A stretch of DNA of 64,000 nucleotides from the NCBI GenBank assembly GCA_963422735.1, contig OY730476.1, positions 288,001 to 352,000 on the forward strand, given 5' to 3'. This document shows positions 8,362 through 64,000 of the stretch, in pieces (positions within the stretch are counted from its first letter, which is position 1; each line of letters begins with the position of its first letter). Source of the stretch: Candidatus Latescibacterota bacterium. GTDB taxonomy: Bacteria > Latescibacterota > UBA2968 > UBA8231. The translations under genes and the position numbers were made by a program. Under the pieces are notes generated by a model that saw nothing but the letters and a program-made list of their open reading frames with translations, searched no databases and had not been told where the DNA came from.

Positions 8362-8375
8362 GAGAGGGAAACTGC

Positions 8376-8810
8376 ATGGATAAGACGATTGCTTGGTGCT
8401 TGGTATTGGCCACGAGTACGCCGGCGTGGACCGAGCCGTTGCCGTTGCCGCGGTGGCTGGTCCAATTGGAAGCGGTCTTAGCGGCACAATGGGCCCAGCG
8501 GCCGATGCTCGGCCAGCGGTTGATGCCAACCATGTCTTCGGCTCCGAAAAAGAAGAAACGCTCGCGCAAGAAGCTCTACTTGAGCGCGGCCTTGACTGTG
8601 GGGGCTGGTGCGGTGGCCTACTGGAGCAAGGCGCGGGCCGACGCTGCGTACGACCGCTATTTGCGTTCGGCCAGCGTGGTGCGCCAGCGGCGCGAATTAG
8701 ACGCGGCCAAGCATTTTGACCGCGTGGCTGGTGTGGCGTTTGTCAGCATGGAAGTAGGCCTAGTACTCAGTTCGTACCTACTCTTTTTTAGGGTTTTTAG
8801 AGAACAATAA
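8376..8810 (+). CDS. Hypothetical membrane protein
   Basis: ATG at 8376 after GAGGGA; signal-like N-terminus and two hydrophobic segments. Confidence 0.6.
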   Translation: MDKTIAWCLVLATSTPAWTEPLPLPRWLVQLEAVLAAQWAQRPMLGQRLMPTMSSAPKKKKRSRKKLYLSAALTVGAGAVAYWSKARADAAYDRYLRSASVVRQRRELDAAKHFDRVAGVAFVSMEVGLVLSSYLLFFRVFREQ

Positions 8811-48579: not shown

Positions 48580-49764
48580 TCATCGGGGGACAGTGGGGTC
48601 TTTGAGAGCGACGATGTCGCCTTCGGCTAGGCCGGAGACAATCGCGGCCGCGGTGGCGTTTTTCGCGGACAATTCTACCTCAACTTCTGCGAAATCGCCG
48701 CCTTCGAGCCGATAGGCAACCCAGCGGTCGGCGCGGGCGAAGACGGCGTTCAGTGGCACGGATAGGACATTGGGGATGGCGCGGAGGACGATTTCGACTT
48801 GGGCGGACATGCCCGGCTTGAGCCGCTCGTCCTGCTCGTCGATGTCGATGACGAGCTCGAAGACGTGGATGTCCGGTGCGCCAGGCTGGGGGGAGGCCAT
48901 GGGCGCGATGTTGGCTACGGTGCCGTTGAAGACCGGCCCGGGGAAGGCTTCGAGGCGGATGAAGACCCGCTGGCCGACGCGTATGCGCTCGATGTCCATT
49001 TCGCCGATCAGGCACAGTACCTGCATTTCGCTCATGTCCGGGATGTCGAGCAGGCCGCGACCTCCCCAGACTTGGTCTCCGACCGCGACTTTGCCCTCCT
49101 CGTCGGTGCCTGGTTTCCAGATTTTGCGATAGACCACGATACCCGGTTTGGCCGCATAGATGCTGGTGCGTTCGTAGTCGCGCCGCGCCCTTTCGTAGCG
49201 CTCCTGCTTGCGGGCGATGTTCAGCTCGTGCTTGCGAAAATCCACCCGGTTGACCACTTCTTGAGCCACGGACTCCTGCCGCGCTTCCGCCGTGGCGCGC
49301 CGGGCCTTCGCCAAATTGATGAGCCCTTGCTCTTGGTCAATGGTGGCGGCGAATTTCTGGCGTTCTTGGTTGACCGCAGCGAGTTGGAGCTCGGCCTGCT
49401 GCTGCTGGATCTTGCGCTTGATGTCGGCGAGGTGTTGCTCGTGCTCGGCCTTGGCCTTGGCGAATTCCGACTGGGCCTGTTCGAGCTGGCCCTCGCGGTC
49501 GAGCATCTCCCGTTCAAACTCGGCCGGGTCGAACTGGAGGATCAAGTCGCCGACATCGACTTTTTCCCCTTCGGGCCAGAGGTGAACGATCTTGAGCCGG
49601 CCGCCGATCCGCGGCGACATCACGACTTCGCCGCTGACCGCGCGCACCTCGCCACCTTCAAAGTGCGTCACCGCAAAATCGCCGCGCACGACCTCGGCCG
49701 TGGGCAGGTCGGGCGGCACGCCCTGACAAGCGCACAGCGCTAGGGCGCAAAAGACCCTTCTCAC
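48580..49764 (-). CDS. Second efflux periplasmic adaptor subunit (probable lipoprotein)
   Basis: [16 protein letters not shown] and LKPGMSA; paralog of the downstream adaptor. Confidence 0.85.
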
Positions 49765-50459
49765 CGGGTGGCCTCCTCGGTCGGGCAATCGCTTTCGATG
49801 CGACCATCGCGGAAGCGGACGATGCGCCGGCTGCGGCGGGCGAGGTGCTCTTCGTGTGTCACGAGGAGGATGGTGTTGCCCGCGGCGTGTACTTGGTCGA
49901 AAAGGTCCATGATTTCGTCGCCGGTGCGGGAGTCGAGGGCACCGGTCGGCTCGTCGGCGAGGATGATGGAGGGCTCGTTGACGAGGGCACGAGCAATGGC
50001 CACGCGCTGCTTCTGGCCGCCGGACAGCGCGTTGGGCCGGTGCTCAACGCGCTCGGCCAAGCCCACAGACTCGAGGGCGAGGGCGGCTCGCTCCCGGCGT
50101 TGTCGCGCCGGCAGGCCGCTGTAAATCAGCGGCAGCTCGACATTGCCCAAGGCATTGGCACGGGGCAGGAGGTTAAAGGTTTGAAAGACGAAGCCGATTT
50201 CCCGATTGCGGATCCTCGCTAAGTCGTCGTCGTCCATCTCGCTGACGAGGACATTGCCGAGAGCGTAGCTGCCCGAGGTGGGCACATCGAGGCAGCCGAG
50301 GATGTTGAGCAGGGTGCTCTTGCCCGATCCCGACGGCCCCATGATGGCCACGTATTCGCCCGCAGCCACGCAGAGGTCCACCCCGCTTAGGGCGTGGATT
50401 GCAGTCGCCCCCATGTCGTAGGTCTTGGTCAGGTTGCGTATTTCAATAATCTCGTCCAT
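49761..50459 (-). CDS. ABC transporter ATP-binding protein (MacB/LolD type)
   Basis: [23 protein letters not shown] and ADEPTG. Confidence 0.95.
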
Positions 50460-51108
50460 CGGCCTTCTCAACCGCTCGCACTTGCCCCTGCTCCAGCCAC
50501 CCAGCCGCAGCCGCTGGCGGCTGGCGCACGCGGACATAGCCCGCTCGCTCTTCTTCGGCGAGCAGGATCGCGCCCGCCTCAACGCGGGCCAGCACTGGAG
50601 CACTGGGAGCGGGGGTCGCGCGCAGTGCGCCGCCGGTGGGTGCGTACACCATGCGTTCGATAAAGCCGTCGATCGTGGCTCTAAATACGGCCATAGCGTC
50701 GCGGGCCAAGTCGTCGTGGGGTGCGACCCGCACGGCCGCTAGCTTACTATAACGATAGGTGATCCCGGCAGCCGCCTCGCTCTGGGCGCGAAGATGGGCC
50801 AACTCGGGCACTGGAGCAGATGCCTTGGGGCCGGCTGCGGTAAAGACCGCGGTTACTAAGGTCTCGGTCTCGGGGTTGTAGGGGCTGGGTTGGGCCTGCC
50901 AGCGGAGGAGTTGGCCATCTTCGTACACTTGCAGGATATAGGCGCGGGTGAGTTCGTCGAAGCGGGCGGCAATGCCCCGGTATTCGCACTCGGCGCGTTG
51001 CAAGGCGTCGATGTCGCGGGCCATATCGCGCACAACGCCCGGGTTTGGGGAAGGGAGTAAGACGAGGGCAGGCGCGAGCAGTGTCTTGAAGATGCGGGCA
51101 GCTAACAT
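50443..51108 (-). CDS. Hypothetical exported protein with C-terminal SH3-like domain
   Basis: [23 protein letters not shown]. Confidence 0.6.
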
Positions 51109-51269: not shown

Positions 51270-51350
51270 ATGCGTTTTTTTAACACGGCTGGCCCGATCC
51301 AGCCCCAACACCACTACCACATCCCGCAGCTACTGCGGGGAGGGGCCTAA
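51270..51350 (+). pseudogene. N-terminal stub of an AAA-like ATPase
   Basis: RBS AAGGAG followed by MRFFNTAGPIQPQHHYHIPQL, a recognisable family N-terminus, then a stop. Confidence 0.55.
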
Positions 51351-51377
51351 AATCTTCCAAGCACCGAAAGGACGAGT

Positions 51378-52175
51378 ATGAGCGCCATATCCTTTGAGCA
51401 TATGTTGAGCCGCCAGTACACGGTCTTCGATGGGCTGGGTGGGATGCACGTGGAAGACATCTACCAAGACCGCCAAGGCTTTCTCTGGATCGCCACGGCC
51501 GACGGCGGCGTCAGCCGGTTCGACAGTGTGCGCTTCGATACCTTTAACACCAAAGATGGCCTGCCCAATCTGACGGTGATGGCCATTGCCGAGGAAGCCG
51601 ACGGGCGGCTGCTGTTGGGCACGTTTGGCGGGGGGATCGCCGCCTACGACGGGCGCGGCTTTCAGGTGTACACCACCGAGCACGGCCTGCCTTCCAATGA
51701 GATCGTGAGCCTGCAACCGCAGCCGGATGGCTCGATGCTGGTGCTGACCAACGAGGGGGTAGCGTGGTTTGCCGAGGGGGGCTGTACAAGGAGCATAACC
51801 GATGTTGGCGGCCAACCGTTGGGGCGGGTGTACGATATGGCCACTGACGCGGGCGGCACCACTTGGCTGGCCACGTGGGAGCGAGGCGTTCTCAGCTTGG
51901 ATGGGCGGTGCATGGATACCGGCGACCGGGCGGTGCGATGGCCTTGGAAATTCGCCGAAGGTCCCTCTGGCCACCTGTGGATTGCCTTCCTGTACATGAA
52001 CCCCGAAACCTTTATCGGCCGCTACGATGCGCGAGACGAGCAGTTCGCATTCATCCATGTGGATTGCGAAGCCGAGAGGGCTGCGCAGAATGGGGTGCGG
52101 CATGTGCGGGTTGACGATAGGGGCTGGCTCTGGCTGGCGCGCCGAGGGGTGCTCTGCTACGACGGGCAGGCGTGA
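51378..52175 (+). pseudogene. Two-component regulator propeller (Reg_prop) sensor, truncated
   Basis: DGL..V..I.QD..GFLWIAT..GVSRFD and GLP.N repeats. It ends abruptly where a VCBS gene fragment begins. Confidence 0.75.
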
Positions 52176-52187
52176 CATCATTTTTCC

Positions 52188-53041
52188 GAGGAGATGGCGG
52201 CTTCCCAAGACTATACGCCCCGTCATATTGGCGACTTTACCGGTGATGACGCCGATCTCCGGGAGCGTCCGTGGGGTGAACAGGTGGTTTGTGGGGCCCT
52301 TGGGCGCGGCGTTTCAGAGAGGCGAGATATTTGAATTCGATGAGAGGAAGAAGCCGTTAGGGGTGGGCGATTTTGATGGCGATGGGCAGGTGGATTTCCT
52401 CACCGAATTCGCATCCGCTCAATTAGAAGGTGCTATATGATGATCGGCTATTTCTGCGCTCGTCAGTGCGGGTGCGCGACCTCAACGCCGATGGAGTCGA
52501 GGACTGGGTGTTTATCGGCGGGGATCGCGCCTCGGGCTTTGGGGTGTTTGTCGAATGGGGCGGGAGTGTCAACCCTACTCAAGTAGGGGAGCGGCACCCT
52601 CTGGAGGGCAGTGGGATACACGTGCTGTGTGGGGATATGGATAACGACGGCGATCTCGACTTGGTGGTGTTAGATCCGATATGGGGTGGAGTGCATCTGC
52701 TCAAGAGTTCACTGGCCGAGCAGCCAACGGCGGTGCTGACGCCGGCGGTAGCGCGGCCGGTGCAGCATCGGCTGGGTGAAAGCTATCCCAATCCGTTCAA
52801 TCCGGCGGTGGTGCTGCCCCTTGAGTTGGCAACGGACGCGGCGGGAGTGTCGCTGACGGTGTATGACGTGCTGGGTCGTCGGGTGCGGCGGGTGTGGGAC
52901 GGGTCGCTGGGGGCGGGAACGCATCGGTTTACGTGGGATGGCCGCGACGCGGCGGGCAAGGCGGTGGCTGCGGGTGTGTATATCTATCAGGTCGAAGTGG
53001 ATGGGCAGGTGGAAGCGAAGAAGACGACGAAGCGGCCTTGA
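52188..53041 (+). pseudogene. 3' remnant of FG-GAP/VCBS + FlgD-Ig protein (cassette copy 1)
   Basis: Near-identical to the 3' parts of 54063-56213 and 57201-59360, with several deletions. Confidence 0.85.
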
Positions 53042-53302
53042 GGGGATGCGTCTATGCGACCGTACGCACTCGTATTGGCCTTTGCTCAACCCCACTTTCA
53101 GCACCGCAGCGGCTTGGCTCTGATGCGGCCGGGGCTGAGGGGGCCGGGTTCTCAGTGCTTCGCGGGGCTTGCGGTCCTGCTCGGCGCACGGGGAGCCGCA
53201 CGCCGACCGGGAGGGCGCGATCCCTAGGAGTAGCTATAGCCTCGCTCCGATGGTATGTAGGCGGCATCGAAGGGGCTATGAAAATGGGTGGGGCCTCGGT
53301 GC

Positions 53303-53370
53303 ATACGGAAAACCGTATCCATCATACGGAAAATCGTATAAAACCGTATCCATCATACGGGAAACCGTAT
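53303..53370. promoter_or_regulatory. Palindromic upstream activator sites ATACGG-N4-CCGTAT (3 full + 1 half)
   Basis: Sites at 53303-18, 53324-39 and 53355-70, located 120-190 bp upstream of a sigma54 promoter. Confidence 0.65.
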
Positions 53371-53491
53371 GCTCCCTAGCACCGACGGCTCCGGCACCGA
53401 CGAGTAGAAAGCTTTCTCATACGTTATAAGTATCATGTTTTTCAATCTGTTAGATGCGTCCTGAAGGGTTTTTTGTTCGGATTCTGATCGT

Positions 53492-53506
53492 TGGCATGCC
53501 ACTTGC
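53492..53506 (+). promoter_or_regulatory. sigma54 -24/-12 promoter
   Basis: TGGCATGCCACTTGC (GG-N10-GC), with an IHF-like TTTCAATCTGTTA at 53440-53452. Confidence 0.75.
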
Positions 53507-53627
53507 ATAGCATAACTGTTGAAGGCGCTGCCGATGCCGACGAGGTATCGGTCGTTGCTCAACGCTGACTTCCAGTATGGTATCGGCCCCAGGCTGCGGA
53601 CGTACTGGGCAACGAAGGAGATGGACC

Positions 53628-53906
53628 ATGGACAGTCTTCGGGAATTCTTCACGTCGTCGAGCGGGTTGGCCCCGGCTCGGCAGGGGTTGGGACTCGGGT
53701 GGGTCATCAGCGCTCTTACGGGGGTCGCTATCCTGCTCGGGGCCAAGGAAGCCGAAGCCGGTAGTTGCCCGGGCGAACGGACAGATTGTTCTTGGCATGC
53801 CGGGTGCGCGGAAGTTTATCCGAATGAGCCGTTCCGGTGCTGCACCAAGAAGTTGGACGCCTACTGCGATGTGATTGAAGTAGTAAGTTGCTCCTGTGTG
53901 GCCTAA
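53628..53906 (+). CDS. Cysteine-rich peptide precursor 1 (44-aa leader + 48-aa core with 8 Cys)
   Basis: AAGGAG 7 nt before the ATG. The leader is identical to copy 2 over residues 1-40. The core is GSCPGERTDCSWHAGCAEVYPNEPFRCCTKKLDAYCDVIEVVSCSCVA. Confidence 0.8.
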   Translation: MDSLREFFTSSSGLAPARQGLGLGWVISALTGVAILLGAKEAEAGSCPGERTDCSWHAGCAEVYPNEPFRCCTKKLDAYCDVIEVVSCSCVA

Positions 53907-54062
53907 GACTACCACATCCGATATAAAGAAGATAGATGGGTGGCCGTTACTCAGGCTAAGGTGCTAAAGGTCCGGATCAATCGTAGCGTTTGAGCCGAGC
54001 TCCTCCTTTTTTCCGACTGCTTAGAGACGCTATCTGCCGGAATTGTTGGAAAGGTATGTGCT

Positions 54063-56213
54063 ATGATGTTGCTATGGGCCGTTGTTACAGGTGTTGTGCT
54101 GTGGGGTGGCTCCGCCGAGGCGGTTAGGTGGGATTTCGACGATGGGACAACGCAGGGGTGGTCTGCCAAAGAAGCGCTTATATGGGGTGGGACGCGTGAA
54201 TTGCACCTGTTTCCGGGGGGGGTCGAAGACGGCGTGTGGCGGATCAATGTCGATCCCTCGGTCACCAAGGGTCATTATCTCGCGCCGAGTGTCGAATTGA
54301 TTTCTTCGACCATCGGGTACGATTCAGGTCTATTCGACCAAGTGCGCATCCGGTTCCGCACCGTCCATCACCACCCTACGGTCGGTAATGTTTCAATCGA
54401 GTGGACCAACGAGCACAACGCCCTGTCTTCAGGTTGGGATCCAAAAGATCCGCCGTCTGGAAGCCGGTTTCAAAGCCCCGTACAACCAATCGTTTATACC
54501 ACCGAGTGGCAGGAAGTGGTGCTCTTCTTGGCAGGTCAAGACGAGAAGATATGGCAGGGGCTGTTAAAAGATATTCAGCTAGGTTTTAGACTGGATGAGA
54601 ACAAAACAGGGGCAACTCGGTCGTCTACCGAGGTGGTCGGGTGGTTTGAGATCGACTGGATCGAGTTGACCGGCGTGGAAGAGATGATACAGGGAGAACT
54701 ACCGCCGCCGCACGTAGAGTACTTTCGCTTTGCTGAGGCCAAACTTTTTGCGCCGCCGGTGTTCTATCCGATTGCGCCGGGCATAGGGGAAGACGCTCTA
54801 GGTCTAGATAAGATCGGCGTCTTGGCGGACTTGGATGGCGATGGCGACTTAGACTTTTTCGCCCCCTATAATTACCGTCAACAGGGGCGATGGTGGTCTA
54901 AAACAGGGTGGCTGATGGCCCTCAATGACGGGCAAGGCGTCTTGGAACTAGGGCGTATAGAGGAAGTATCTGCTACAGAGCAGCCTAGTACCGATGCGGC
55001 AACTGGAACGACGACCGTCTCCGGGGTGATCATAGAGGTGATTGGTGCTGATTTGACCGGCGATGGTAAAGACGAAATCGCGATATCTGCAAGCAACAGT
55101 GGGCAAGTGACAGAAGTTTGGTCTGTGGGGCCGGAACTCCAAGTCGAGGTGCTCGTGCAGATAGAGGATCGATGGATCCGAGATGTGGCGGATTGGGATG
55201 GCGACGGCCGGGTCGAACTATTTGTAGGGGATATTACGTTTGAAGGAAGCACGTTAGAGGTCTGGGATGTCGAGCAGGGGGTGTGGGCCGCCGATGAGAT
55301 TGCGACTGCCAAAAACCATGCGCCCGCTCAGATTGGCGACTTTATCGGCGATGGGGCATTAGACGTGTTGTGGCTACCGATCGCTGGGCGAGTGAATACG
55401 TGGATTGTGCAGGCCTTGAGCGAGGAGTTTCAGAGAGGCGAGATATTTGAATTCGATGAGAGGAAAGGGCTGTTAGGGATGGGCGATTTTGATGGCGATG
55501 GACAGGTGGATTTCCTCACCGAATTCGCACTTGATCGAATCGAAGGTAGGAAGGGACTGGTTTTGCAGAGGAAGCGCGCCGGAGATCGCTTAGCAGCCGA
55601 GGTGCTCTACGATGATCGGCTGTTTCTGCGCTCGTCAGTGCGGGTGCGCGACCTCAACGCCGATGGAGTCGAGGACTGGGTATTTATCGGCGGGGATCGC
55701 GCCTCGGGCTTTGGGGTGTTTGTCGAATGGGGCGGGAGCGTCAACCCTACTCAAGCAGGGGAGCGGCATCGTCTGGAGGGCAGTGGGCGATACGTGCTGT
55801 GTGGGGATATGGATAACGACGGCGATCTCGACTTGGTGGTGTTAGATCCGATATGGGGTGGAGTGCATCTGCTCAAGAGTTCACTGGCCGAGCAGCCAAC
55901 GGCGGTGCTGACGCCGGCGGTAGCGCGACCGGTGCAGCATCGGCTGGGCGACAGCTATCCCAATCCGTTCAATCCGGCGGTGGTGCTGCCCCTTGAGTTG
56001 GCAACGGACGCGGCGGGAGTGTCGCTGACGGTGTATGACGTGTTGGGTCGTCGGGTGCGGCGGGTGTGGGACGGGTCGCTGGGGTCGGGAACGCATCGGT
56101 TTACGTGGGATGGCCGCGACGCGGCGGGCAAGGCGGTGGCCGCCGGGGTGTATATCTATCAGGTCGAAATCGACGGGCAGGTGGAAGCGAAGAAGACGAC
56201 GAAGCGGCCTTGA
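54063..56213 (+). CDS. Secreted FG-GAP/VCBS repeat protein with N-terminal beta-sandwich and C-terminal FlgD-Ig (T9SS-CTD-like) domain
   Basis: Signal peptide ending AEA; WDFDDGTTQGW..EIDWIEL; multiple DxDGDGxxD; YPNPFNP..VYDVLGR.VR..WDGRD..G..VAAGVY.Y. Confidence 0.88.
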   Translation: MMLLWAVVTGVVLWGGSAEAVRWDFDDGTTQGWSAKEALIWGGTRELHLFPGGVEDGVWRINVDPSVTKGHYLAPSVELISSTIGYDSGLFDQVRIRFRTVHHHPTVGNVSIEWTNEHNALSSGWDPKDPPSGSRFQSPVQPIVYTTEWQEVVLFLAGQDEKIWQGLLKDIQLGFRLDENKTGATRSSTEVVGWFEIDWIELTGVEEMIQGELPPPHVEYFRFAEAKLFAPPVFYPIAPGIGEDALGLDKIGVLADLDGDGDLDFFAPYNYRQQGRWWSKTGWLMALNDGQGVLELGRIEEVSATEQPSTDAATGTTTVSGVIIEVIGADLTGDGKDEIAISASNSGQVTEVWSVGPELQVEVLVQIEDRWIRDVADWDGDGRVELFVGDITFEGSTLEVWDVEQGVWAADEIATAKNHAPAQIGDFIGDGALDVLWLPIAGRVNTWIVQALSEEFQRGEIFEFDERKGLLGMGDFDGDGQVDFLTEFALDRIEGRKGLVLQRKRAGDRLAAEVLYDDRLFLRSSVRVRDLNADGVEDWVFIGGDRASGFGVFVEWGGSVNPTQAGERHRLEGSGRYVLCGDMDNDGDLDLVVLDPIWGGVHLLKSSLAEQPTAVLTPAVARPVQHRLGDSYPNPFNPAVVLPLELATDAAGVSLTVYDVLGRRVRRVWDGSLGSGTHRFTWDGRDAAGKAVAAGVYIYQVEIDGQVEAKKTTKRP

Positions 56214-56463
56214 GGGGATGCGTCTATGCGACCGTACGCACTCGTATTGGCCTTTGCTCAAGCACCGCAGCGGCTTGGCTCTGATGCGGCCGGGGCTGAG
56301 GGGGCCGGGTTCTCAGTGCTTCGCGGGGCTTGCGGTCCTGCTCGGCGCGCGGGGAGCCGCACGCCGACCGGGAGGGCGCGATCCCTAGGAGTAGCTATAG
56401 CCTCGCTCCGATGGTATGTAGGCGGCATCGAAGGGGCTATGAAAATGGGCGGGGCCTCGGTGC

Positions 56464-56500
56464 ATACGGAAAACCGTATCCATCATACGGAAAATCGTAT
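56464..56500. promoter_or_regulatory. Two palindromic upstream activator sites
   Basis: ATACGGAAAACCGTAT and ATACGGAAAATCGTAT, 21 bp apart. Confidence 0.65.
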
Positions 56501-56621
56501 GCTCCCTAGCACCGACGGCTCCGGCACCGACAAGTAGAAAGCTTTCTCATACATTATAAGTATCATGTTTTTCAATCTGTTAGATGCGTCCTGAAGGATT
56601 TTTTGTTCGGATTCTGCTCGT

Positions 56622-56636
56622 TGGCACGCCATTTGC
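56622..56636 (+). promoter_or_regulatory. sigma54 -24/-12 promoter
   Basis: TGGCACGCCATTTGC, a full match to TGGCACG-N4-TTGC. Confidence 0.8.
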
Positions 56637-56762
56637 ATAGCATAACTGTTGAAGGCGCTGCCGATGCCGACGAAAGAAGGTATCGGTCGTTGCTCAACGC
56701 TGACTTCCAGTATGGTATCGGCCTCAGGCTGCGGACGTACTGGGCAACGAAGGAGATGGACC

Positions 56763-57044
56763 ATGGACAGTCTTCGGGAATTCTTCACGTCGTCGAGCGG
56801 GTTGGCCCCGGCTCGGCAGGGGTTGGGACTCGGGTGGGTCATCAGTGCTCTTACGGGGGTCGCTATCCTGCTCGGGGCGAAAGGAGCTGCAGCCGATTGC
56901 GACAAAAGAAAGTGGACAAGGGACTTCGGGTACAGCGCAGGTTGCGACGAGGCCACGAAAGGGGCAGCGGCGAAGATGTGTCAGGACTGTTGGCTGGACT
57001 CGAAATGCAAAACAAGGTGCGGGGGGAACTACTGCTGCGCTTGA
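56763..57044 (+). CDS. Cysteine-rich peptide precursor 2 (44-aa leader + 49-aa core with 8 Cys)
   Basis: Same RBS and leader as precursor 1. The core is DCDKRKWTRDFGYSAGCDEATKGAAAKMCQDCWLDSKCKTRCGGNYCCA. Confidence 0.8.
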   Translation: MDSLREFFTSSSGLAPARQGLGLGWVISALTGVAILLGAKGAAADCDKRKWTRDFGYSAGCDEATKGAAAKMCQDCWLDSKCKTRCGGNYCCA

Positions 57045-57100
57045 AGGGTATCTGAGACGACCTTAGCTGCTGTAGGGCCGTTTCTCTTGCTAAGGTGTGA

Positions 57101-57141
57101 GGGGCCGGCTTAATCGCTGCGATTGAGCCGGCCCCCTTTTC
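57101..57141 (+). terminator. Rho-independent terminator between the peptide and VCBS genes
   Basis: ggggccggcttaatcgc-t-gcgattgagccggcccc hairpin followed by ctttt. Confidence 0.7.
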
Positions 57142-57200
57142 CCTTCGTACTTACGGACAGTGCCCAGTCTTCTGGAAATGTCTCTTATGGAGGTAGTGTC

Positions 57201-59360
57201 ATGCTGAAATTTGTCGCTGTTGCATGGGTTGTGCTGGGCAGTAGCCTCGCCGAGGCGGTTAGGTGGGATTTCGACGATGGGACGACGCAAGGGTGGACCG
57301 CCAAAGAAGCGCTTATATGGGGTGGTACGCGTGAATTTAACCAGTTTCTGGGGGGGGTCGAAGACGGCGTGTGGCGGATCCGGATTGATCCGGCCGCTAC
57401 CAAGAGTTTGCACACCTCCAGGTCGGGTGTCGAAGTGATTTCTTCGGCGATCGGGTATGATTCGGACCTGTTCGATCAAGTCCGCATCCGGTTCCGCACC
57501 GTCCATGACCGTCCTACGGAAGGTACTTTTTCTATCGCGTGGGAAAACGCTTCCGATTTTAATCTGGATGCTGAATATGAAGCGTTAACGTCTTTTATAC
57601 ATCTCGCCCAGCAAATAGTCTATACCACCGAGTGGCAGGAATTGGTGGTATCCTTGGCGGGTCAAGCCGGATGGCAGGGCCTGTTAGAAAATATTCAGCT
57701 AAGTTTCATATCTTTTGAAGTGGTCGAGTCGTTTGAGATTGACTGGATCGAGTTGACCGGCGTGGAAGAGATGATACAGGGAGAACGGCCGCCGCCGCCC
57801 GTAGAGTACTACTTTCGCTTTGCGGGGGCCGGCCTTTTTGCGCCGCCGGTGTTCTATCCGATTGCGCCGGGCATAGGGGAAGCACCTATTGGAGGAAGGT
57901 ATCTAGGGGATAAGGTATGGGGCAACGTGTTGACGGACTTGGATGGCGATGGCGACTTAGACCTGTTCGGCCTCTGGAAAACGCGAACGGAAATACCACA
58001 TGGGTATGAGGATAAAGCGGGCTGGCTGATGGCTGTCAATGACGGGCGAGGGGCCTTGGAACGTGGGCCTGTTATAGAAGAAGTAATGGCTGCAGGTTGG
58101 GTGGTCTTAAAGATGCTGAGTGCTGATTTGACCGGCGATGGTAAGGACGAAATCGCGATATCACGAAGCAACCGGGAACCCTCGACCGAAGTGTGGTCTA
58201 TCGGGCCGGAACTCCAAATCGAGGTGCTCGTGCAGTTCGATAGCGGGCTCCATAATGTGGCGGATTGGGATGGCGACGGCCGGGTTGAGTTATTTACGGG
58301 GGGGGCTATGTTTGAAGGCTCTTTAGAGGAAGTGATCGCGGGTACGGCGAAGTTTTCAAGCAGGTTAGCGGTCTGGGAGGTCGAACAGGGCGTGTGGACT
58401 TCCGAGGAAGTGGCGGCTTCCCAAGACTATACGCCCTCTCATATCGGCGACTTTACTGGCGATGGGACCCTCGATGTGTTTTGGGTGCCGATCGCCGGGG
58501 AAGCCCGTGGGATGAACAGGTGGATTGTGGGAGCCTTGGGCGAGGAGCATCAGAAAGGAGAGATATTTGAATTCGATGAACGGAAGGGGCCGTTAGGGGT
58601 GGGCGATTTTGATGGTGATGGGCAGGTGGATTTCCTCACCGAGTTCACATCCCCTCAATTCAAAGATGGCATAGAAAGAATTAGCATAGAAGGTAGTAAG
58701 GGGATCGTCTTGCAGAGAAAGGGAGCCGGGGATCGCCTCGAAGCGGAGGTGCTGTATGATGATCGGCTGTTTCGGCGCTCGCCGGTGATGGTGCGCGACC
58801 TCAACGCCGATGGAGTCGAGGACTGGGTGTTTATCGGCGGGGATCGCGCCTCGGGCTTTGGGGTGTTTGTCGAATGGGGCGGGAGCGTCAACCCTACTCA
58901 AGCAGGGGAGCGGCATCGTCTGGAGGGCAGTGGGCGATACGTGCTGTGTGGGGATATGGATAACGACGGCGATCTCGACTTGGTGGTGTTAGATCCGATA
59001 TGGGGTGGGGTGCATCTGCTTGAGAGTTCACTGGCCGAGCAGCCAACGGCGGTGCTGACGCCGGCGGTAGCGCGACCGGTGCAACATCGGCTGGGCGACA
59101 GCTATCCCAATCCGTTCAATCCGGCGGTGGTGCTGCCCCTTGAGTTGGCAACGGACGCGGCGGGAGTGTCGCTGACGGTGTATGACGTGTTGGGTCGTCG
59201 GGTGCGGCGGGTGTGGGACGGGCCGCTGGGGTCGGGAACGCATCGGTTTACGTGGGATGGCCGCGACGCGGCGGGCAAGGCGGTGGCTGCCGGGGTGTAT
59301 ATCTATCAGGTCGAAATCGACGGACAGATAGAAGCCAAGAAGACGACCAAGCTACCGTAA
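57201..59360 (+). CDS. Secreted FG-GAP/VCBS repeat protein with FlgD-Ig C-terminus (cassette copy 3)
   Basis: RBS GGAGG and ATG at 57201. Paralog of 54063-56213 with a near-identical C-terminal third. Confidence 0.88.
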   Translation: MLKFVAVAWVVLGSSLAEAVRWDFDDGTTQGWTAKEALIWGGTREFNQFLGGVEDGVWRIRIDPAATKSLHTSRSGVEVISSAIGYDSDLFDQVRIRFRTVHDRPTEGTFSIAWENASDFNLDAEYEALTSFIHLAQQIVYTTEWQELVVSLAGQAGWQGLLENIQLSFISFEVVESFEIDWIELTGVEEMIQGERPPPPVEYYFRFAGAGLFAPPVFYPIAPGIGEAPIGGRYLGDKVWGNVLTDLDGDGDLDLFGLWKTRTEIPHGYEDKAGWLMAVNDGRGALERGPVIEEVMAAGWVVLKMLSADLTGDGKDEIAISRSNREPSTEVWSIGPELQIEVLVQFDSGLHNVADWDGDGRVELFTGGAMFEGSLEEVIAGTAKFSSRLAVWEVEQGVWTSEEVAASQDYTPSHIGDFTGDGTLDVFWVPIAGEARGMNRWIVGALGEEHQKGEIFEFDERKGPLGVGDFDGDGQVDFLTEFTSPQFKDGIERISIEGSKGIVLQRKGAGDRLEAEVLYDDRLFRRSPVMVRDLNADGVEDWVFIGGDRASGFGVFVEWGGSVNPTQAGERHRLEGSGRYVLCGDMDNDGDLDLVVLDPIWGGVHLLESSLAEQPTAVLTPAVARPVQHRLGDSYPNPFNPAVVLPLELATDAAGVSLTVYDVLGRRVRRVWDGPLGSGTHRFTWDGRDAAGKAVAAGVYIYQVEIDGQIEAKKTTKLP

Positions 59361-59365
59361 ACGGC

Positions 59366-59956
59366 ATGGGACAGCCTAAGCATCCATTATACTGGATGTA
59401 CTCCGGTTTAATCCTGCTCTTAATCCCTGCGATTATTGTGCTTGTGGACCGCTATGAAAAGAGCCTCAGCCCCCAAGCGCCCCTACCGCCTGCTCCGCCT
59501 AAAGAAGTTGTGTTGCGCGGTCTCGCCGCGTTTGATTCCACCGCGAGTGCTCTCCACCTAAAAGAAGTGTATCAGGCCGTGCCCGCGCTGCGTTCCGGGG
59601 TGTTGTCAGCCTATCGCGTGCTTACAGACGACGAGGCATTGGCCTACAAGCTAGTCGTCGTTCGCCACGATATTGCCTGTGCTACCTGCCGCGATCTACT
59701 GGTTGGCATCCTCATAGAGCCGAAGGAAGACCGCGTTGCGGCTGTTTGGTCCTTGGCGTCTTGGGAGCTGGCCGACGGCCGCTTCGATCCGACCGCCTTC
59801 TTTGCCCAACTGAGCGGGCGGGCACTCGCTGAGCCTTTGGTTGTAGGCCGGGATATCGATGGAATCACCGGGGCGACCCTGTCCGTAAATGCCTTGGTGA
59901 CCCAATGGAGCCAAGCGGGCACTTGGCTGGCGGAGTCCACGGGAATCACCTTTTGA
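59366..59956 (+). CDS. Membrane-anchored FMN-binding domain protein with CxxC
   Basis: N-terminal TM segment; HDIACATC; DGITGATLS covalent-flavinylation motif (RnfG/NosR-like). Confidence 0.75.
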   Translation: MGQPKHPLYWMYSGLILLLIPAIIVLVDRYEKSLSPQAPLPPAPPKEVVLRGLAAFDSTASALHLKEVYQAVPALRSGVLSAYRVLTDDEALAYKLVVVRHDIACATCRDLLVGILIEPKEDRVAAVWSLASWELADGRFDPTAFFAQLSGRALAEPLVVGRDIDGITGATLSVNALVTQWSQAGTWLAESTGITF

Positions 59957-59969
59957 GGAGTATTGGGCT

Positions 59970-61127
59970 ATGGATATGTTGCTGAATGAGATTGATCTCG
60001 TCTTCTTGCTAGAGTGGGGCCTGCTGTGCTCGATCATGGCTGTTGCCGCCTACACAACTTATACGGACGTCAGCCATAGAGAGATTCCCAATTCGGCTAT
60101 TGGGACTTTGCTCGGTCTGGGGCTGATAGGGCAGATGGGATTGTGGATATTGGGTGAGGTTGCACTCGTATCGATCGGGCTATCATTGCTGCTGGGATTT
60201 GCCGTAGGCTACCTGTTGTTTATGTATGGCTTCTGGGGGGCGGGGGATGCCAAGTTGTATTGGGCCATGGTCGCGGCGATGCCTAGTACGTTGTTTGGTC
60301 AGAAGTGGCCGACTCTCTCCTTGGCCTTTTTTTCGCTAGATACCCCTATTTGGTCCTTGTTGGTCAATACCATTTTGACCAATACCGTTTTTCTTGTAGT
60401 CCTTCTGGTCCTCCATAAACCCGCAAGACCCATCGCAATCTCTGCAAGCGAGCATAGAAAGGGCATGAATTGGGGCTGGCTGCGCTCGGGGTTTGAAGCG
60501 GCAGGATTGAGCGGGTTGGTGTTAGGTGGGACGACGTTGGTCGGCGTGACCTTGACCCTCGCCGAGGCTATCGTAGTGGGGGCTGTGCTCTATTTGATCC
60601 ATGAAGAGCGGACCAAGGCGCCCAATAGAATTATTTGGGTCGTTCCCGGGCTTGTAATCGGTGTCTTTAGCACCATCAGCACCGGGAACTACCTGATCTG
60701 TCTCTTGCTTTGGGCCGTGCTGTGGGGCATACAGACCGTCTATGTGTATATCCACGCTCTCGAGTACCAGAAGTTTGTGCAGCCGGTTTCTATCGATGCC
60801 TTACAGCCGGGCATGGTGCTACATCAGTCGATTTATGAAGCCCCTGCGGAAGGGCGAGTCGAAGTAGTTTCGTTCGGCGAGCAGAGTAGAGATACGCGGG
60901 AGCGAATAGGTCGAATGGGCAAGCCGTTGACCGGGCGAAAAGTGCGCCAGCTAAAAGACCTACAAAAAAAGGGATTGTTCCGCGAATGGGACGATCAGGT
61001 AGAAGTTGAACTGTCGCTGCCCTTTGCGCCGGTCTTGATGGTTGGCGTCGGCCTAACTCTGATATGGCCCGGAAGTATGGTAAGGCCAGTCAATCGGTGG
61101 ATTCAGCCGTTGTTCGATGCGTTTTAG
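59970..61127 (+). CDS. A24 family (prepilin/preflagellin-type) GxGD aspartic peptidase
   Basis: YTD..REIPN and GAGDAKL catalytic aspartates; many TM helices; C-terminal L.PGMVL..PFAP domain as in FlaK/EppA-like enzymes. Confidence 0.82.
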   Translation: MDMLLNEIDLVFLLEWGLLCSIMAVAAYTTYTDVSHREIPNSAIGTLLGLGLIGQMGLWILGEVALVSIGLSLLLGFAVGYLLFMYGFWGAGDAKLYWAMVAAMPSTLFGQKWPTLSLAFFSLDTPIWSLLVNTILTNTVFLVVLLVLHKPARPIAISASEHRKGMNWGWLRSGFEAAGLSGLVLGGTTLVGVTLTLAEAIVVGAVLYLIHEERTKAPNRIIWVVPGLVIGVFSTISTGNYLICLLLWAVLWGIQTVYVYIHALEYQKFVQPVSIDALQPGMVLHQSIYEAPAEGRVEVVSFGEQSRDTRERIGRMGKPLTGRKVRQLKDLQKKGLFREWDDQVEVELSLPFAPVLMVGVGLTLIWPGSMVRPVNRWIQPLFDAF

Positions 61128-61145
61128 GGAAAGGAAAGATACACG

Positions 61146-61700
61146 ATGAAAGCTATGCGCTCGAAACCGCAAGCGACGATGCTGTTGCTGTCAACGGTGC
61201 TGGGCATCCTCTTGGGGACCAGTATATTGTTGGCCACAAAAATCAACAATCCTCCAATCGCCCCAATGGCGACGAGCTTGGAAAACCTGTTGGGTGAACG
61301 CGTCCCGGAGTACAAACTCGAACAACTGAACGGTGCTCCAATCTCGACCCATCTGTACAAGGGCGAATCCCACCTGCTGGCCTTTACGCTGCCGAGTTGT
61401 GATGCCTGTGACACCATGTACCCCATTTTAAGGGAAGCGGCTACAGATATTCCCATTTTGATGATTGCCAATACACGAGAAGGACTGATGGAAAAGGTCG
61501 CCGAACACGCCTTGGCCTTTCCCATTGCTGTAGATACACTGCTGCTGACGATGGAAGAGCTCAACATCACGAATTTCCCGACCGCGCTCTTGGTGGATGG
61601 GGAACAAAGGATCGTCGAGGCCGTCAGGGGCGGCGGCTTCCCGATTGAGAACATTGTACAGTCCGCGCAGAAAGTACTTGAAAAAGAGAGGACACAATGA
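61146..61700 (+). CDS. TlpA/redoxin-like thioredoxin-fold protein
   Basis: TM anchor, P.Y.LEQLNG, CDAC and cis-Pro FPT..LVD. Confidence 0.82.
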   Translation: MKAMRSKPQATMLLLSTVLGILLGTSILLATKINNPPIAPMATSLENLLGERVPEYKLEQLNGAPISTHLYKGESHLLAFTLPSCDACDTMYPILREAATDIPILMIANTREGLMEKVAEHALAFPIAVDTLLLTMEELNITNFPTALLVDGEQRIVEAVRGGGFPIENIVQSAQKVLEKERTQ

Positions 61701-62227
61701 GGGCCGATCAAAAGCATTGGAAGATCGCCGGGCTTGTGAGCGTGGTCTTGTTGCTGGTGCTGATTTTCAAGGAGAAGTCTGAGGAACCAGCGGGGATCGT
61801 CTGGAGCGAGGAGGATACGAAGCGTTCTGAGTATCTATCTGAAGGAACAGACGCCCCTGACTTTGAATTGCCCTCTATGCAAGGGGGCCACGTCCGTCTC
61901 AGCCGTTTTAAGGGGCAGCGGGTAGGGCTGATTTTTGTAACCCCTACCTGCCCGTATTGCAACGACTTGGAACGTTACTTGGTAGAGTACGACCTTCCCC
62001 AAGAGAGCCATTTGCTACTGGTCAGCCAAGGTACGAAAGACCAAGTGCAGCAAATCGTCGAAAACCACGACTTGGCGATACCCGTTTTGGTCGACTCAGC
62101 GGGTGCGGTTGCCCAAGCCTACCGGATCGGGGGTGTGCCGCAGTTTTACGTGGTGAGCAAGGAGGGAAGCATTGCTTCTTTTGCGCGAGGGATGCCGCCG
62201 GTATGGGAAGCCGTGCAAAAGCTATAA
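61697..62227 (+). CDS. TlpA/redoxin-like thioredoxin-fold protein
   Basis: TM anchor, APDFELPSMQG, CPYC and GVPQFYVV. Confidence 0.85.
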   Translation: MRADQKHWKIAGLVSVVLLLVLIFKEKSEEPAGIVWSEEDTKRSEYLSEGTDAPDFELPSMQGGHVRLSRFKGQRVGLIFVTPTCPYCNDLERYLVEYDLPQESHLLLVSQGTKDQVQQIVENHDLAIPVLVDSAGAVAQAYRIGGVPQFYVVSKEGSIASFARGMPPVWEAVQKL

Positions 62228-62248
62228 ACAAGGAGGACACTACGAGGT

Positions 62249-63454
62249 ATGGAAATCATTCCGTTAATTGCCGAACGCGACGTAGCGATGCAACGGGCGT
62301 GGGTCGCACAAAATCGAGATGTACGCACCCAAGCGAAGGCTTGCCTCCTTTTGGGACGCTATTACAAGGAACAAGGTGAACTCGACAAGGCTGAAGCCCT
62401 GTACCGAAGAGCCCTTGCGAAAGCACGGCCGTTGCAGGCACATGAGATGGAAGCCGATGCGTGCAGCGGCTTGGGGCTTATGTACCAAGTCAAGGGACGG
62501 ATGGACGAGGCGGTTGACTATCTCAATAAAGCCTTTGAGATCAATAGGGAATGCCGCGATGAGCAGCGTCTGGCCGTCAACTATAGCAATAGAGGCTTTG
62601 TCGCCCATCTCCAAGGAAAAATTGGAGAAGCACAAGACCTGCACATACGCGCTCAGAAACTTCACGAGGTGTCGGGCAATAGAGCCTATTGGGCGGAAGA
62701 ATGCGGCAACTTGGGTCAGTTGGCACTCCAGCAGAACAAACTGGAGGAGGCCGAGGGCTACTTTCAGCAGGGGCTGAACATTTGTGAAGAATTCGGCGAT
62801 CTGCAAGGTATTTCCGGCCACTATCAAGGCTTGGGACTGGTCTATCTCGGACAGCAGCGTTTGGCCGAAGCCGAAGGCATCCTTAAAAAAGGCCTTGCGA
62901 TCGAGGAGCGGCTCCAGCGCGACGAGGGATTGGCTCATCATTACAGCGTCTTGGGGGGCGTATATAGCCGAGCAGGTCGGTTTAATGAGGCGGAAACCAT
63001 GTACCGTCGGACGCTGGCCATCCAACGCAAATTAGGCCATAAACAGTTTGAAGCCCGCACCATAAGCGGTCTGGGGCAGATGCTATGGGAGAAAGGCGAC
63101 CTGCGAGAAGCTACGGCGTCGTTTCAGCAGGCTAGGGCACTGTTTGACGCGATCGGAGACAACAAAGGCGGGGCGGTACAAGCGGCTCTTTTGGGCGATA
63201 CCTATATGGACGTTGAAAACTTTCATGCGGCAGAGGGGGCGTATCGGCAGGCGGTGCAGCTATTTGAGAAAGTATCGGACTTGGAGGCCGTAGCCGACGT
63301 TAGAGTTCGTTTGGGGAGGGTCTATGCTTCGAATCAGGCTCCTTATGATGCCTTGCTTCAGTGGCGGCAAGCACTGGAATTATACCGCGAACTCCAGCTA
63401 GACGACCGGGTTGAGTTCGTAGAAGAGCTTCTGAGGACGAGCGGCAGAACGTAA
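62249..63454 (+). CDS. Tetratricopeptide repeat protein
   Basis: About nine TPR units (LG.Y..G...EA...Y..AL.I). Confidence 0.88.
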   Translation: MEIIPLIAERDVAMQRAWVAQNRDVRTQAKACLLLGRYYKEQGELDKAEALYRRALAKARPLQAHEMEADACSGLGLMYQVKGRMDEAVDYLNKAFEINRECRDEQRLAVNYSNRGFVAHLQGKIGEAQDLHIRAQKLHEVSGNRAYWAEECGNLGQLALQQNKLEEAEGYFQQGLNICEEFGDLQGISGHYQGLGLVYLGQQRLAEAEGILKKGLAIEERLQRDEGLAHHYSVLGGVYSRAGRFNEAETMYRRTLAIQRKLGHKQFEARTISGLGQMLWEKGDLREATASFQQARALFDAIGDNKGGAVQAALLGDTYMDVENFHAAEGAYRQAVQLFEKVSDLEAVADVRVRLGRVYASNQAPYDALLQWRQALELYRELQLDDRVEFVEELLRTSGRT

Positions 63455-63462
63455 AGGACAAA

Positions 63463-64000
63463 ATGATGTTCAAAGCGATGCGGCAGCGGACAGTAGCCGG
63501 ACTCTTCAAGGTCATCAGCCGTCTTGAGGAAACGGAACGCTTGCGTCGTCTAGAGCGAGACCGAGTTTCAATACTGATCTTTTTTCACGGTTTTGATCGC
63601 GTTTCCGCGCATCGTGCTTTGGTAGTGGGTACGACGCTCCGCCGCCGAGGATACCGAGTCGAGTTTGCGGGCACGGGTTCGTTTGCCGACCAGTTCCGGC
63701 AAGCGGGCTTCCCACTGCACGACCTCGACACGCCGATACAAGACTTGGGAGCAGTACTGGATTTTGGCGCGAATGAAGCAGACTACCATACATTCATCAA
63801 TCAAAGCGTGGAAGCCGAGCGAGCGCTGATTGGTCGCTTGAAGCCCGACCTCGCAATAGTGGACTCCCGTCCCACGCTGCGCTTGGCGGCGACATTGGAA
63901 GGGGTTGATGTGGTTTGGATAAAGTCGGCCTATACTATGCCCGAATACTCCTACCCTATTCACTCACCTGATTTCATGCGTACTTGGGATGATATAATTA
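63463..64000 (+). CDS. GT-B fold glycosyltransferase-like protein (runs off the window edge)
   Basis: Not in the ORF track. Manual translation gives ..ILIFFHGF..HRALVVG..LRRRGYRVEFAG..AGF..VEAERALI.RLKPDLAIVDSRP.L.LAA..GV, a GT1/GT28-like N-terminal domain. Confidence 0.6.
   Translation, partial: MMFKAMRQRTVAGLFKVISRLEETERLRRLERDRVSILIFFHGFDRVSAHRALVVGTTLRRRGYRVEFAGTGSFADQFRQAGFPLHDLDTPIQDLGAVLDFGANEADYHTFINQSVEAERALIGRLKPDLAIVDSRPTLRLAATLEGVDVVWIKSAYTMPEYSYPIHSPDFMRTWDDII

Follow-up and report, generated by a model that had tools for sequence, protein, structure and literature searches.

A putative sigma54-switched system in Latescibacterota for maturing disulfide-rich mini-proteins and sorting them on type IX secretion cargo

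A 64,000-nucleotide stretch of a Candidatus Latescibacterota genome (assembly GCA_963422735.1, contig OY730476.1, bases 288001-352000), referred to here as the window, ends in a run of genes that we interpret as a Latescibacterota-specific, sigma54-switched maturation and sorting system for disulfide-bonded mini-proteins that ride on cargo of the type IX secretion system (T9SS). We hold this interpretation with about as much confidence as doubt. The genes comprise repeated pairs of a small Cys-rich peptide precursor and a large secreted beta-propeller protein, followed by a flavoprotein, an A24 peptidase, and two thioredoxin-fold proteins (redoxins). The contig is 4.95 Mb long and the genome is 95% complete. 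An earlier interpretation made from the letters of the DNA (the sequence-only reading) had proposed that the locus is an undescribed system, and this is borne out by Pfam and NCBIfam, searched with the locus proteins, and by the literature at the level of abstracts, none of which contains a description of it; PHROGs and PADLOC were not used.

Every gene from 51378 to the end of the window lies on the + strand, and the co-directional run continues about 15 kb beyond it; coordinates given here are window positions unless marked as genome positions. The run is organized around a repeat unit consisting of palindromes, an AT-rich stretch, a -24/-12 element, a ribosome-binding site, a small open reading frame (ORF) with eight Cys codons, and a gene for a protein of about 716 residues. 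Start-to-start spacings of 3172 and 3147 nt (about 3.15 kb), together with the strand listing, confirm the co-directional genes and the two units of that length that had been noted earlier. The units and the genes that follow them are:

53304..53369, + strand: unit 1 upstream activator sites, three palindromes TACGG-N4-[CT]CGTA, aligned across three units
53492..53507, + strand: unit 1 sigma54-type -24/-12 promoter, TGGCAT-N5-TTGCA, by motif match
53628..53906, + strand: pep1 precursor, 92 residues, 8-Cys core of type A, by profile alignment and an AlphaFold2 model of the core
53969..54002, + strand: decayed hairpin after pep1, then a T-run (z +1.47), homologous to the hairpins of units 2 and 3
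54063..56213, + strand: propeller protein VCBS1, 716 residues, with FG-GAP_3, FlgD_ig, and TIGR04183
56465..56499, + strand: unit 2 upstream activator sites, two palindromes, by motif match and the three-unit alignment
56622..56637, + strand: unit 2 sigma54-type promoter, TGGCAC-N5-TTGCA, by motif match
56763..57044, + strand: pep2 precursor, 93 residues, 8-Cys core of type B, by profile alignment
57099..57138, + strand: strong terminator- or attenuator-like hairpin after pep2 (z -3.55; 0 of 200 shuffles fold equally well)
57201..59360, + strand: propeller protein VCBS2, about 719 residues from the ATG at 57201, with the architecture of VCBS1 by Pfam domains
59366..59956, + strand: FMNb, 196 residues, membrane-anchored NqrC-like FMN-binding protein with CxxC (CATC) and TGAT motifs, by motifs and fold search
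59970..61127, + strand: A24 aspartyl peptidase of archaeal type, 385 residues, with both catalytic Asp motifs (Pfam Peptidase_A24)
61146..61700, + strand: TrxA, membrane-anchored thioredoxin fold with CDAC (AhpC-TSA/Redoxin at 23 bits, below the cut-off of 26)
61697..62227, + strand: TrxB, membrane-anchored TlpA/ResA-like redoxin with CPYC (AhpC-TSA at 65.5 bits, cut-off 26)

Identity between units 1 and 2 is uneven. The intergenic region and leader codons are 96-99% identical (repeat families D5, D8, and D6) and the 3' part of the propeller gene 93-96%; identity is only about 79-82% in the peptide core and in the 5' part of that gene. Downstream of the window lie, in order, genes for a GT2 glycosyltransferase, a DUF4159 protein, a 157-residue ORF, a sigma54 activator, a third intact unit (pep3 and its propeller), and a second DUF4159 protein. 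A second, diverged locus at 1.71 Mb encodes an activator, an A24 fragment, a flavoprotein, two redoxins, a 6-Cys peptide, a propeller, and a DUF4159 protein. Contigs from two other public runs (X2 and X3) join position 58660, in the 3' part of the VCBS2 gene, back to 55600 in that of VCBS1 ('goes back 3061'), a sign that natural populations may hold variants of the repeat unit that differ in copy number or by recombination. Eight public runs were found in all, none of them listed as RNA.

Conserved reading frames mark the peptide ORFs as real genes of an unannotated family, as the sequence-only reading had supposed. A profile of four copies retrieves 363 proteins at E<=0.01, almost all of 85-100 residues; none of them carries a Pfam domain, and the sole name given to them is 'hypothetical protein'. 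Searches with the peptides return no family in Pfam (E<=10) or NCBIfam (E<=0.01), only the chance-level rows DUF2574 and nec1, and a profile of 35 members has no hit among PDB sequences at E<=10. In a HMMER scan of 1.84 billion representatives, 148 clusters (50% identity) match the family at E<=0.001, at least one of which (P0353) is a repeat-protein false positive. The best ESM Atlas scores for pep2 (0.82 and 0.77) belong to unnamed clusters labelled Poribacteria and are leads only.

Sampled members of the family share one plan. F-x-x-[SDN]-[ES]-[ST]-G is followed by about seven polar residues, [LF]-x-x-x-W, and a hydrophobic helix; after a breaker residue (Pro or Gly) and small-x-small, there are 6-10 Cys within 45-60 residues. 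In pep1 this corresponds to a Flp-like n-region that ends in Gly13 (residues 1-13), a hydrophobic helix (21-39), A42-x-A44, and the 8-Cys core (45-92). The N-terminal 44 residues are nearly constant in the family and the cores form discrete types, each conserved between genomes; only F7, G13, W25, A42, A44, and C47 are invariant among 24 diverse members. The A42-x-A44 motif is preceded by a helix breaker and stands 0-4 residues ahead of the first Cys. Small-x-small within eight residues before the first Cys is found in 67 of 67 leader ORFs, although this test is a loose one in an Ala-rich stretch.

Small-x-small after a helix breaker conforms to the -3/-1 rule that is classical for signal peptidase I sites, and the genome encodes one signal peptidase I, for which AxA 42-44 is the probable site. 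Because a membrane helix is combined with an invariant AxA, the 44-residue 'leader' looks like a secretory signal, made up of a Flp-like n-region, a membrane helix, and AxA, and not like the recognition leader of a peptide made on ribosomes and modified after translation (RiPP). We take the motif ending in Gly13 to be typical of Flp prepilin leaders and similar to those of archaellins. As this motif ends at Gly13 and the nearest outside relatives of the A24 enzyme are archaeal prepilin peptidases/FlaK, the A24 cut is placed after Gly13, the probable cleavage site. Gly20 (R-Q-G, before L) was considered as an A24 site and rejected, since the wider family has Gly, Ala, Ser, or Val there.

The 48-residue core of pep1 is modelled by AlphaFold2 as a confident beta-alpha-beta-beta fold (predicted local distance difference test, pLDDT, 85-89). 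Foldseek finds no PDB match at E<=0.001 among the 91 listed, and VIA-align over 48,161 chains gives a best Z of 3.7, with none at Z>=5. Monellin/cystatin, propeller-blade, and laterosporulin folds (the last at Z 3.4 and a root-mean-square deviation of 5.0) were considered for the core, but all are within noise and no fold was assigned. Export of the peptides as four-disulfide products, which the sequence-only reading had proposed, is in our judgment most likely.

That reading had also seen RiPP logic in the constant leader and variable core. A RiPP- or glycocin-like pathway, in which the leader would guide cytoplasmic enzymes (GT-B/transglutaminase, GT2, TPR) that modify the variable core, for example with sugars, and the A24 enzyme would act as leader peptidase, could account for a constant N-terminal part followed by diverse Cys-rich cores, and for small genes set off by hairpins. 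The secretory look of the leader speaks against it, as does the nature of the cores, which are conserved folded types. In the locus we find no double-Gly motif, C39/ABC exporter, RiPP recognition element, radical SAM protein, YcaO protein, or lanthionine enzyme, nor any other known RiPP enzyme family by Pfam or NCBIfam, and no enzyme that would chemically modify the core has been identified apart from disulfide formation, so that RiPP-like core modification is not borne out. The leader is also carried by multi-domain T9SS proteins (described below). The available text of a review of leader proteases (PMC10885120) makes no mention of 'prepilin', 'A24', or 'aspartyl'. We therefore consider a RiPP pathway improbable.

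Glycocins had been named as an analogy. In the sublancin cluster (sunA, sunT, bdbA, sunS, and bdbB), thiol-disulfide oxidoreductases accompany a glycosyltransferase, and the present locus resembles it in pairing a small gene with oxidoreductases and glycosyltransferases and in its presumed disulfide-bonded product. However, the analogy fails on the double-Gly leader and C39/ABC exporter that define the class. The peptides here have a membrane-inserting signal and four predicted disulfides. The locus also encodes an A24 peptidase, a flavoprotein, and a propeller partner, and its glycosyltransferase genes lie outside the conserved core of the system.

The A24 peptidase scores 30 bits against Peptidase_A24 (cut-off 26.5) and 32 bits in a six-frame search. 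Both Asp motifs, which we take to be a first Asp before ..R.[IV]PN and a second in a GxGD-like [AGPM]GD, are present in 19 of 21 homologues, the remaining two being cut by locus ends. Outside its own family the enzyme is closest to archaeal prepilin peptidase/FlaK proteins with Arc_PepC; it is not itself a FlaK equivalog (NCBIfam FlaK_Arch 21.2 bits against a cut-off of 330; Arc_PepC 18.7 against 23.4), and it has no hit among PDB sequences at E<=1. Elsewhere the genome has a single A24-like frame, a 111-residue ORF (G000:C1:3325199-3325507) that shares 39% identity with residues 10-112 of this enzyme and is probably a fragment.

A dedicated A24 peptidase beside its presumed substrates, each with a short n-region, an invariant Gly, and then a hydrophobic helix, would also be expected if the peptides were pilin-like subunits that keep the helix after the A24 cut and form a Flp- or archaeal-type filament, or a pseudopilus, with a Cys-rich head. 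The same features link the locus to the class III signals of Tad/Flp pilins with TadV/CpaA and of archaeal PibD/FlaK substrates. Unlike those systems, this one has no filament ATPase and no Flp_Fap match in the peptides, and redox genes stand in place of assembly genes. No T2SSE-family ATPase is matched in the genome, with a control positive in 13 of 14 genomes, and one of five other carrier genomes has T2SSE above the cut-off; Flp_Fap is above the cut-off in none of 21 genomes, this one included. Position +5 after Gly13, where Glu would suit a pilin, is Arg in the window peptides and mostly Arg, Lys, or His elsewhere, with Glu in few. The helix is followed by a breaker and the invariant AxA and then by a passenger of 45-60 residues with 6-10 Cys, and fusion forms carry a T9SS tail. 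A filament is thus very improbable, and the best reading is that the system is pilus-independent, the A24 enzyme apparently reading a Flp-like tag with no filament motor. In the single carrier with T2SSE, the ATPase gene (G143:C1:751363-752439) is about 30 kb from the copy of the system (781-788 kb).

The remaining conserved genes suggest a redox module. FMNb has no Pfam FMN_bind hit, and its paralogue in the second locus reaches 19 bits against a cut-off of 22, but the top 11 Foldseek rows for its model are all NqrC (E 4e-3 to 0.12). Its CxxC and DG[ILV][ST]GAT motifs persist in 19 of 22 homologues, and the remaining three are truncated. One ApbE is encoded in the genome, and in locus L043 the apbE gene is directly upstream of FMNb. 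Both redoxins have an N-terminal hydrophobic segment. The CxxC of TrxA is found in 16 of 17 homologues, with C-x-x-Y in one paralogue (L031), and TrxB has CPYC in the genus and CxxS in distant loci. In locus L036, a Mutator-family transposase gene (7114-8433) lies between two TrxB-matching pieces (6960-7094 and 8454-8753), and TrxB there appears to be interrupted by an insertion sequence.

From these motifs we infer that FMNb, TrxA, and TrxB form or shuffle the disulfides of the core, with the flavoprotein as redox link. Flavin-linked disulfide relays are represented by Ero1/PDI and QSOX. The module resembles these and NqrC in its CxxC beside a flavin domain, thioredoxin-fold partners, and outward-facing membrane anchor; it differs in that FMNb is not homologous to Ero1/Erv and the locus has no quinone or NADH module. 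The [S/T]GA[S/T] motif is a flavinylation motif (Meheust et al. 2021, PMC8238504). The FMNb family is absent from that paper's passages on thioredoxin-like proteins, disulfides, and peptidases, and its supplement of flavinylation clusters may include the family.

Conservation of this gene set was examined in 32 loci from species-representative genomes with flanks of +/-10 kb, all of them metagenome-assembled genomes of Latescibacterota, one labelled Gemmatimonadota. As far as the flanks reach, the genes follow the order activator-(pep-propeller)n-FMNb-A24-TrxA-TrxB-TPR-GT-GT2-DUF4159, at 65-88% identity. In 11 of the 32 loci the flank extends to the A24 gene, and none of these 11 departs from the order. 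The gene set is found again in a second paralogous system, at 35-40% identity. Peptide arrays reach 20 matches in one genome, and 20 of 30 genomes of the genus carry them. The peptide profile was also searched for co-occurrence with the A24 gene, a check that the sequence-only reading had suggested. It matches 29 of 168 genomes of the phylum and the A24 search (E<=1e-10) matches 31; 25 genomes have both, four the peptide only, six A24 only, and 133 neither, counts that do not form an independent sample because the genomes are kin. In two of the six 'A24 only' genomes, a leader-bearing peptide that the profile missed is found beside the A24 gene.

Eight distant loci, with A24 proteins 26-36% identical, separate an invariant part of the system from its surroundings. 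FMNb, TrxA, TrxB, and A24 occur together in six of them; one of the others is without FMNb by search, and the second has FMNb and TrxA 5 kb from TrxB-A24. A leader-bearing Cys-rich ORF adjoins the A24 gene in all eight, including two 'A24 only' genomes. No orthologues of the window propeller, TPR, and glycosyltransferase genes are found in the eight loci. Instead, a double FtsX/MacB_PCD permease follows the peptides directly in three and families of secreted proteins of about 300 residues, with no Pfam hits, occur in four. Since the peptide, A24, the two redoxins, and the flavoprotein are kept while the surroundings change, we regard these as the invariant core. In L038-L041, which come from two genera of one family, families of paralogous secreted proteins (about 300-340 residues, no Pfam hit) stand after the peptides, in the place of the propeller gene; these may be alternative partners. 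Homology between them and the N-terminal domain of the propeller proteins was considered and rejected (BLASTP E 0.57 or worse).

The maturation operon recognized in the sequence-only reading is thus sound as regards the flavoprotein, the A24 peptidase, and the redoxins, which travel with the peptides and stay adjacent to them at 26-36% A24 identity. It does not hold for the TPR and GT-B/transglutaminase genes, which, like those for GT2 and DUF4159, are missing from the distant core. Each of the two paralogous systems of the genus retains genes for GT-B/transglutaminase, GT2, and TPR proteins; in addition, unrelated GT4 genes abut FMNb in two of the eight distant loci, and a 928-residue TPR protein comes after the peptide in one. 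This would suit a RiPP-like pathway, but the lack of orthology between the glycosyltransferase and TPR genes of the window and those of distant loci does not. It could also be argued that the neighbourhood is due to chance and that the A24/redoxin/flavoprotein operon serves another process, for instance general envelope redox or a different substrate, beside an expanding family of secreted proteins. Four genomes have peptides with no detectable A24, and flavoprotein-thioredoxin pairing is known from unrelated extracytosolic systems (PMC8238504). Against this, adjacency is kept at such A24 divergence over several genera and families, the same set occurs twice in one genome, and the invariant Gly motif has no other obvious reader. 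We regard a chance association as the remotest of the explanations considered, and a dedicated maturation module is the reading that we follow.

Each peptide gene appears to have its own sigma54-dependent promoter. The palindrome TACGG-N4-[CT]CGTA occurs eight times on the + strand of the 4.95-Mb genome, and seven of the eight copies are upstream of the three peptide genes (3, 2, and 2 copies). Each of the three is preceded by TGGCA[CT]-N5-TTGCA or GGGCAC-N5-GTGCA. The genome has one rpoN, and the locus encodes, past the window end, a 1048-residue cytoplasmic Reg_prop/Y_Y_Y activator with a Sigma54_activat domain. With -24 GG/-12 GC promoters, rpoN, an activator, and upstream sites all present, the units constitute, as judged from sequence, a sigma54-dependent regulon, and the enhancer and promoter ascribed to each unit in the sequence-only reading are upheld by these near-private palindromes. 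The hairpin that it assigned to each unit is strong after pep2 and pep3 (z -4.68 for the latter) and decayed after pep1. A 157-residue ORF with no family lies between the DUF4159 and activator genes (L002 6791-7264), with weak matches in L013, L028, and L031. A few kb upstream of the locus are genes on the + strand for a histidine kinase (41137-42627; HAMP/HisKA/HATPase) and for a sigma54 activator of the response-regulator type (42573-44066), so that the locus has two sigma54 regulators in its vicinity.

VCBS1 and VCBS2 each have a Sec signal, an N-terminal domain of no known family, an FG-GAP beta-propeller, and a FlgD_ig/T9SS type A tail; the tail of VCBS1 scores 31.5 bits against TIGR04183 (cut-off 23). 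The genome has 49 TIGR04183 tails, those of VCBS1, 2, and 3 among them, and a 2140-residue frame matching SprA_N at 84.3 bits represents the T9SS translocon, SprA being the only component searched for. In a complex model of the pep1 core with VCBS1, the core is positioned between the N-terminal domain and one (top) face of the propeller, and propeller residues 316-323 are predicted to pair as strands with core residues 48-55. The score, which is the model's own confidence, is 0.73 (0.78, 0.73, and 0.72 in three runs), compared with 0.00 for the best of three controls. Of 80 solved complexes, 58 reach the mark used for such scores, as do 2 of 110 mismatched pairs; these counts apply only approximately here, as own alignments were used. 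Contacts agree between the three runs by at least 72%, with a partner pLDDT of at least 74.

Column entropy averages 2.46 bits over the 61 residues predicted to make contact, as opposed to 1.07 for the other 419 of residues 21-500 (Mann-Whitney p 1.6e-20, overstated because the sequences are kin); the contact residues have a mean pairwise identity of 25% versus 61% for the rest. Core identity tracks that of the contact residues when the rest of the protein is controlled for (partial r 0.36; reached by 0 of 5000 permutations, a significance overstated by the same kinship). A plain Mantel correlation (r about 0.5-0.57) would also be produced by units that duplicate as units. Fusion proteins provide a further connection. 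All five examined, of 209-330 residues and from both paralogous systems, consist of the leader, one to three Cys-rich modules, and the same T9SS tail, which ties the Cys-rich module to the T9SS route. A T9SS tail requires a soluble periplasmic intermediate, and the leader-bearing fusion proteins would therefore pass through one. Physical pairing of core and propeller is supported by the complex model with its controls, by the variable contact residues, and by the fusions.

Both propellers and fusion forms resemble ordinary T9SS cargo in ending in a FlgD_ig/TIGR04183 tail, and differ from it in that the passenger signal has an extra A24 motif. We know of no description of a separate small protein riding on T9SS cargo in trans. 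The pairing of one propeller with each peptide, as read from the window, is not general; propeller-propeller and peptide-peptide tandems occur in relatives, stoichiometry varies, and a strict one-to-one relationship was rejected.

The multi-copy arrays, their patchy spread, and the fast-diverging cores with a co-varying partner surface also invite comparison with polymorphic toxins or bacteriocins. The cores would then be antimicrobial or signalling molecules exported by a MacB-type pump or the T9SS, and the propeller a carrier, immunity factor, or receptor, with the steps of maturation unchanged from our preferred interpretation. An operon for such a pump is found beside the locus, on the opposite strand:

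45954-47201, - strand: MacB-type permease (MacB_PCD and FtsX, by Pfam)
47205-48572 and 48580-49788, - strand: HlyD-family adaptors (HlyD_D23, by Pfam)
49761-50603, - strand: ABC ATPase (ABC_tran, by Pfam)

The E. coli MacAB-TolC pump exports a small disulfide-bonded enterotoxin. The MacB/HlyD/ABC operon flanks the system in four of the 32 related loci (L012, L018, L024, and L035), and the FtsX permease genes after the peptides in three distant loci agree with such a function, but the pump is absent from most related loci. Moreover, no similarity to known toxins or bacteriocins was found, whether by sequence or in the structure searches described above, and a secreted protein of 700 residues would be an odd immunity factor. 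We consider this explanation unlikely but worth keeping in view, and in the preferred T9SS-cargo interpretation the operon is possibly an accessory export pump of uncertain membership. The - strand segment 45954-51108, divergent from the locus, also holds a 221-residue protein with a weak SH3_4 hit.

The remaining features of the window are genus-level accessory genes and a scar at the upstream edge of the locus:

51328..52175, + strand: duplicate of the 5' part of the activator gene (Reg_prop fragment by Pfam; ORF 51378-52175), 824 bp of which are 99.6% identical to genome positions 357242-358065
52184..53041, + strand: 3' remnant of a propeller (FG-GAP/FlgD_ig) gene (ORF 52430-53041; repeat families D1-D4 and D11; Pfam FlgD_ig and FG-GAP_3), 96.7% identical to the 3' end of VCBS1
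62249..63454, + strand: cytoplasmic TPR protein, 401 residues, by TPR domain
63463..64000, + strand, running off the window: 826-residue cytoplasmic protein, GT-B-like in its N-terminal part (weak MGT hit) and transglutaminase-like in its core

The first two were taken in the sequence-only reading for a decayed third copy of the unit. The match to the start of the activator gene instead indicates a recombination product at 51328-53041, an activator 5' end fused to the last third of a propeller gene. The enzyme described there as GT-B resembles GT-B weakly, in its N-terminal part; the gene in full, which extends beyond the window, adds the transglutaminase-like domain, and the protein has no usable ESM Atlas hit.

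Several observations weigh against the interpretation of the locus as a maturation and T9SS sorting system. Peptides occur with no A24 gene at E<=1e-10 in genomes G120 (75% complete), G134, G137, and G141 (94-95% complete), and in L011 the flavoprotein gene is truncated with no A24 gene after it; in such cases the peptidase may be dispensable, or else the loci are in decay. In the second locus of the window genome, the A24 gene is reduced to the C-terminal third (L003 8594-9004, a 136-residue ORF matching residues 246-380). The Flp likeness of the leader has no support from Pfam, with no Flp_Fap (PF04964) hit at E<=10 for eight family members. Conservation is the whole of the evidence for both cleavage sites, and two cuts in one signal would be unusual; we can offer no explanation for this, and it is the weakest part of the mechanism. 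The redox module could run as an oxidase or as an isomerase/reductant, and the lack of matches to Pfam DSBA, DsbB, or VKOR in the genome does not extend to other DsbA-like families, which were not searched for. As to docking, the contact residues are loops, which are more variable anyway. In nearest-neighbour comparisons the propellers are about 60-97% alike and the cores 27-82%, and propellers within a genome are homogenised. Docking on a propeller is also not universal, given that the propeller genes are absent from the eight distant loci.

With these reservations, we propose the following sequence of events. The cytoplasmic Reg_prop/Y_Y_Y activator would bind the palindromes and drive each peptide gene, and the hairpin after the peptide gene would probably lower read-through into the propeller gene. 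The precursor of about 92 residues would insert in the inner membrane with its N-terminus inside and be cut by the A24 enzyme after Gly13, and signal peptidase I would then cut after AxA 42-44, freeing a core of about 48 residues in the periplasm. There, TrxA and TrxB may oxidise or shuffle the eight Cys of the core into four disulfides, with electrons passing to or from an ApbE-flavinylated, NqrC-like CxxC flavoprotein that would stand in for the missing DsbB/VKOR. The modelled complex, covariation, and fusions suggest that the core, once folded, fits between the N-terminal domain and the co-encoded propeller's top face. The C-terminal tail of the propeller would then carry the pair through type IX secretion to the surface or medium. 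More speculatively, the 13-residue fragment released by the A24 enzyme could report export to the cytoplasmic propeller sensor of the sigma54 activator.

The arrangement is reminiscent of the PEP-CTERM/exosortase systems, in which a short sorting signal on many paralogues is associated with a dedicated peptidase, nearby glycosyltransferases, TPR proteins, and sigma54 control. The present system differs in having an N-terminal signal, an A24 peptidase, a redox module, and propellers, and there is no homology between the two. It is conceivable, if doubtful, that the system is a new kind of sorting and maturation pathway altogether, one combining a pilus-free A24 peptidase, a flavin disulfide route, and four-disulfide proteins plugged into the hypervariable face of co-evolving propellers and carried out in trans by type IX secretion, as polymorphic surface modules of two chains for recognition or antagonism.

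If this proposal is correct, A24 'prepilin' peptidases would have substrates outside bacterial type IV filaments, a flavin-based periplasmic route to disulfides would exist in organisms without DsbB or VKOR, and type IX secretion would carry small partners in trans on its cargo. The polymorphic pairs may serve in recognition, adhesion, or antagonism. The peptides would constitute a family of compact four-disulfide folds with no solved-structure match, each with a co-varying binding partner, and such core-propeller pairs would be attractive for studying the evolution of binding specificity and as scaffolds.

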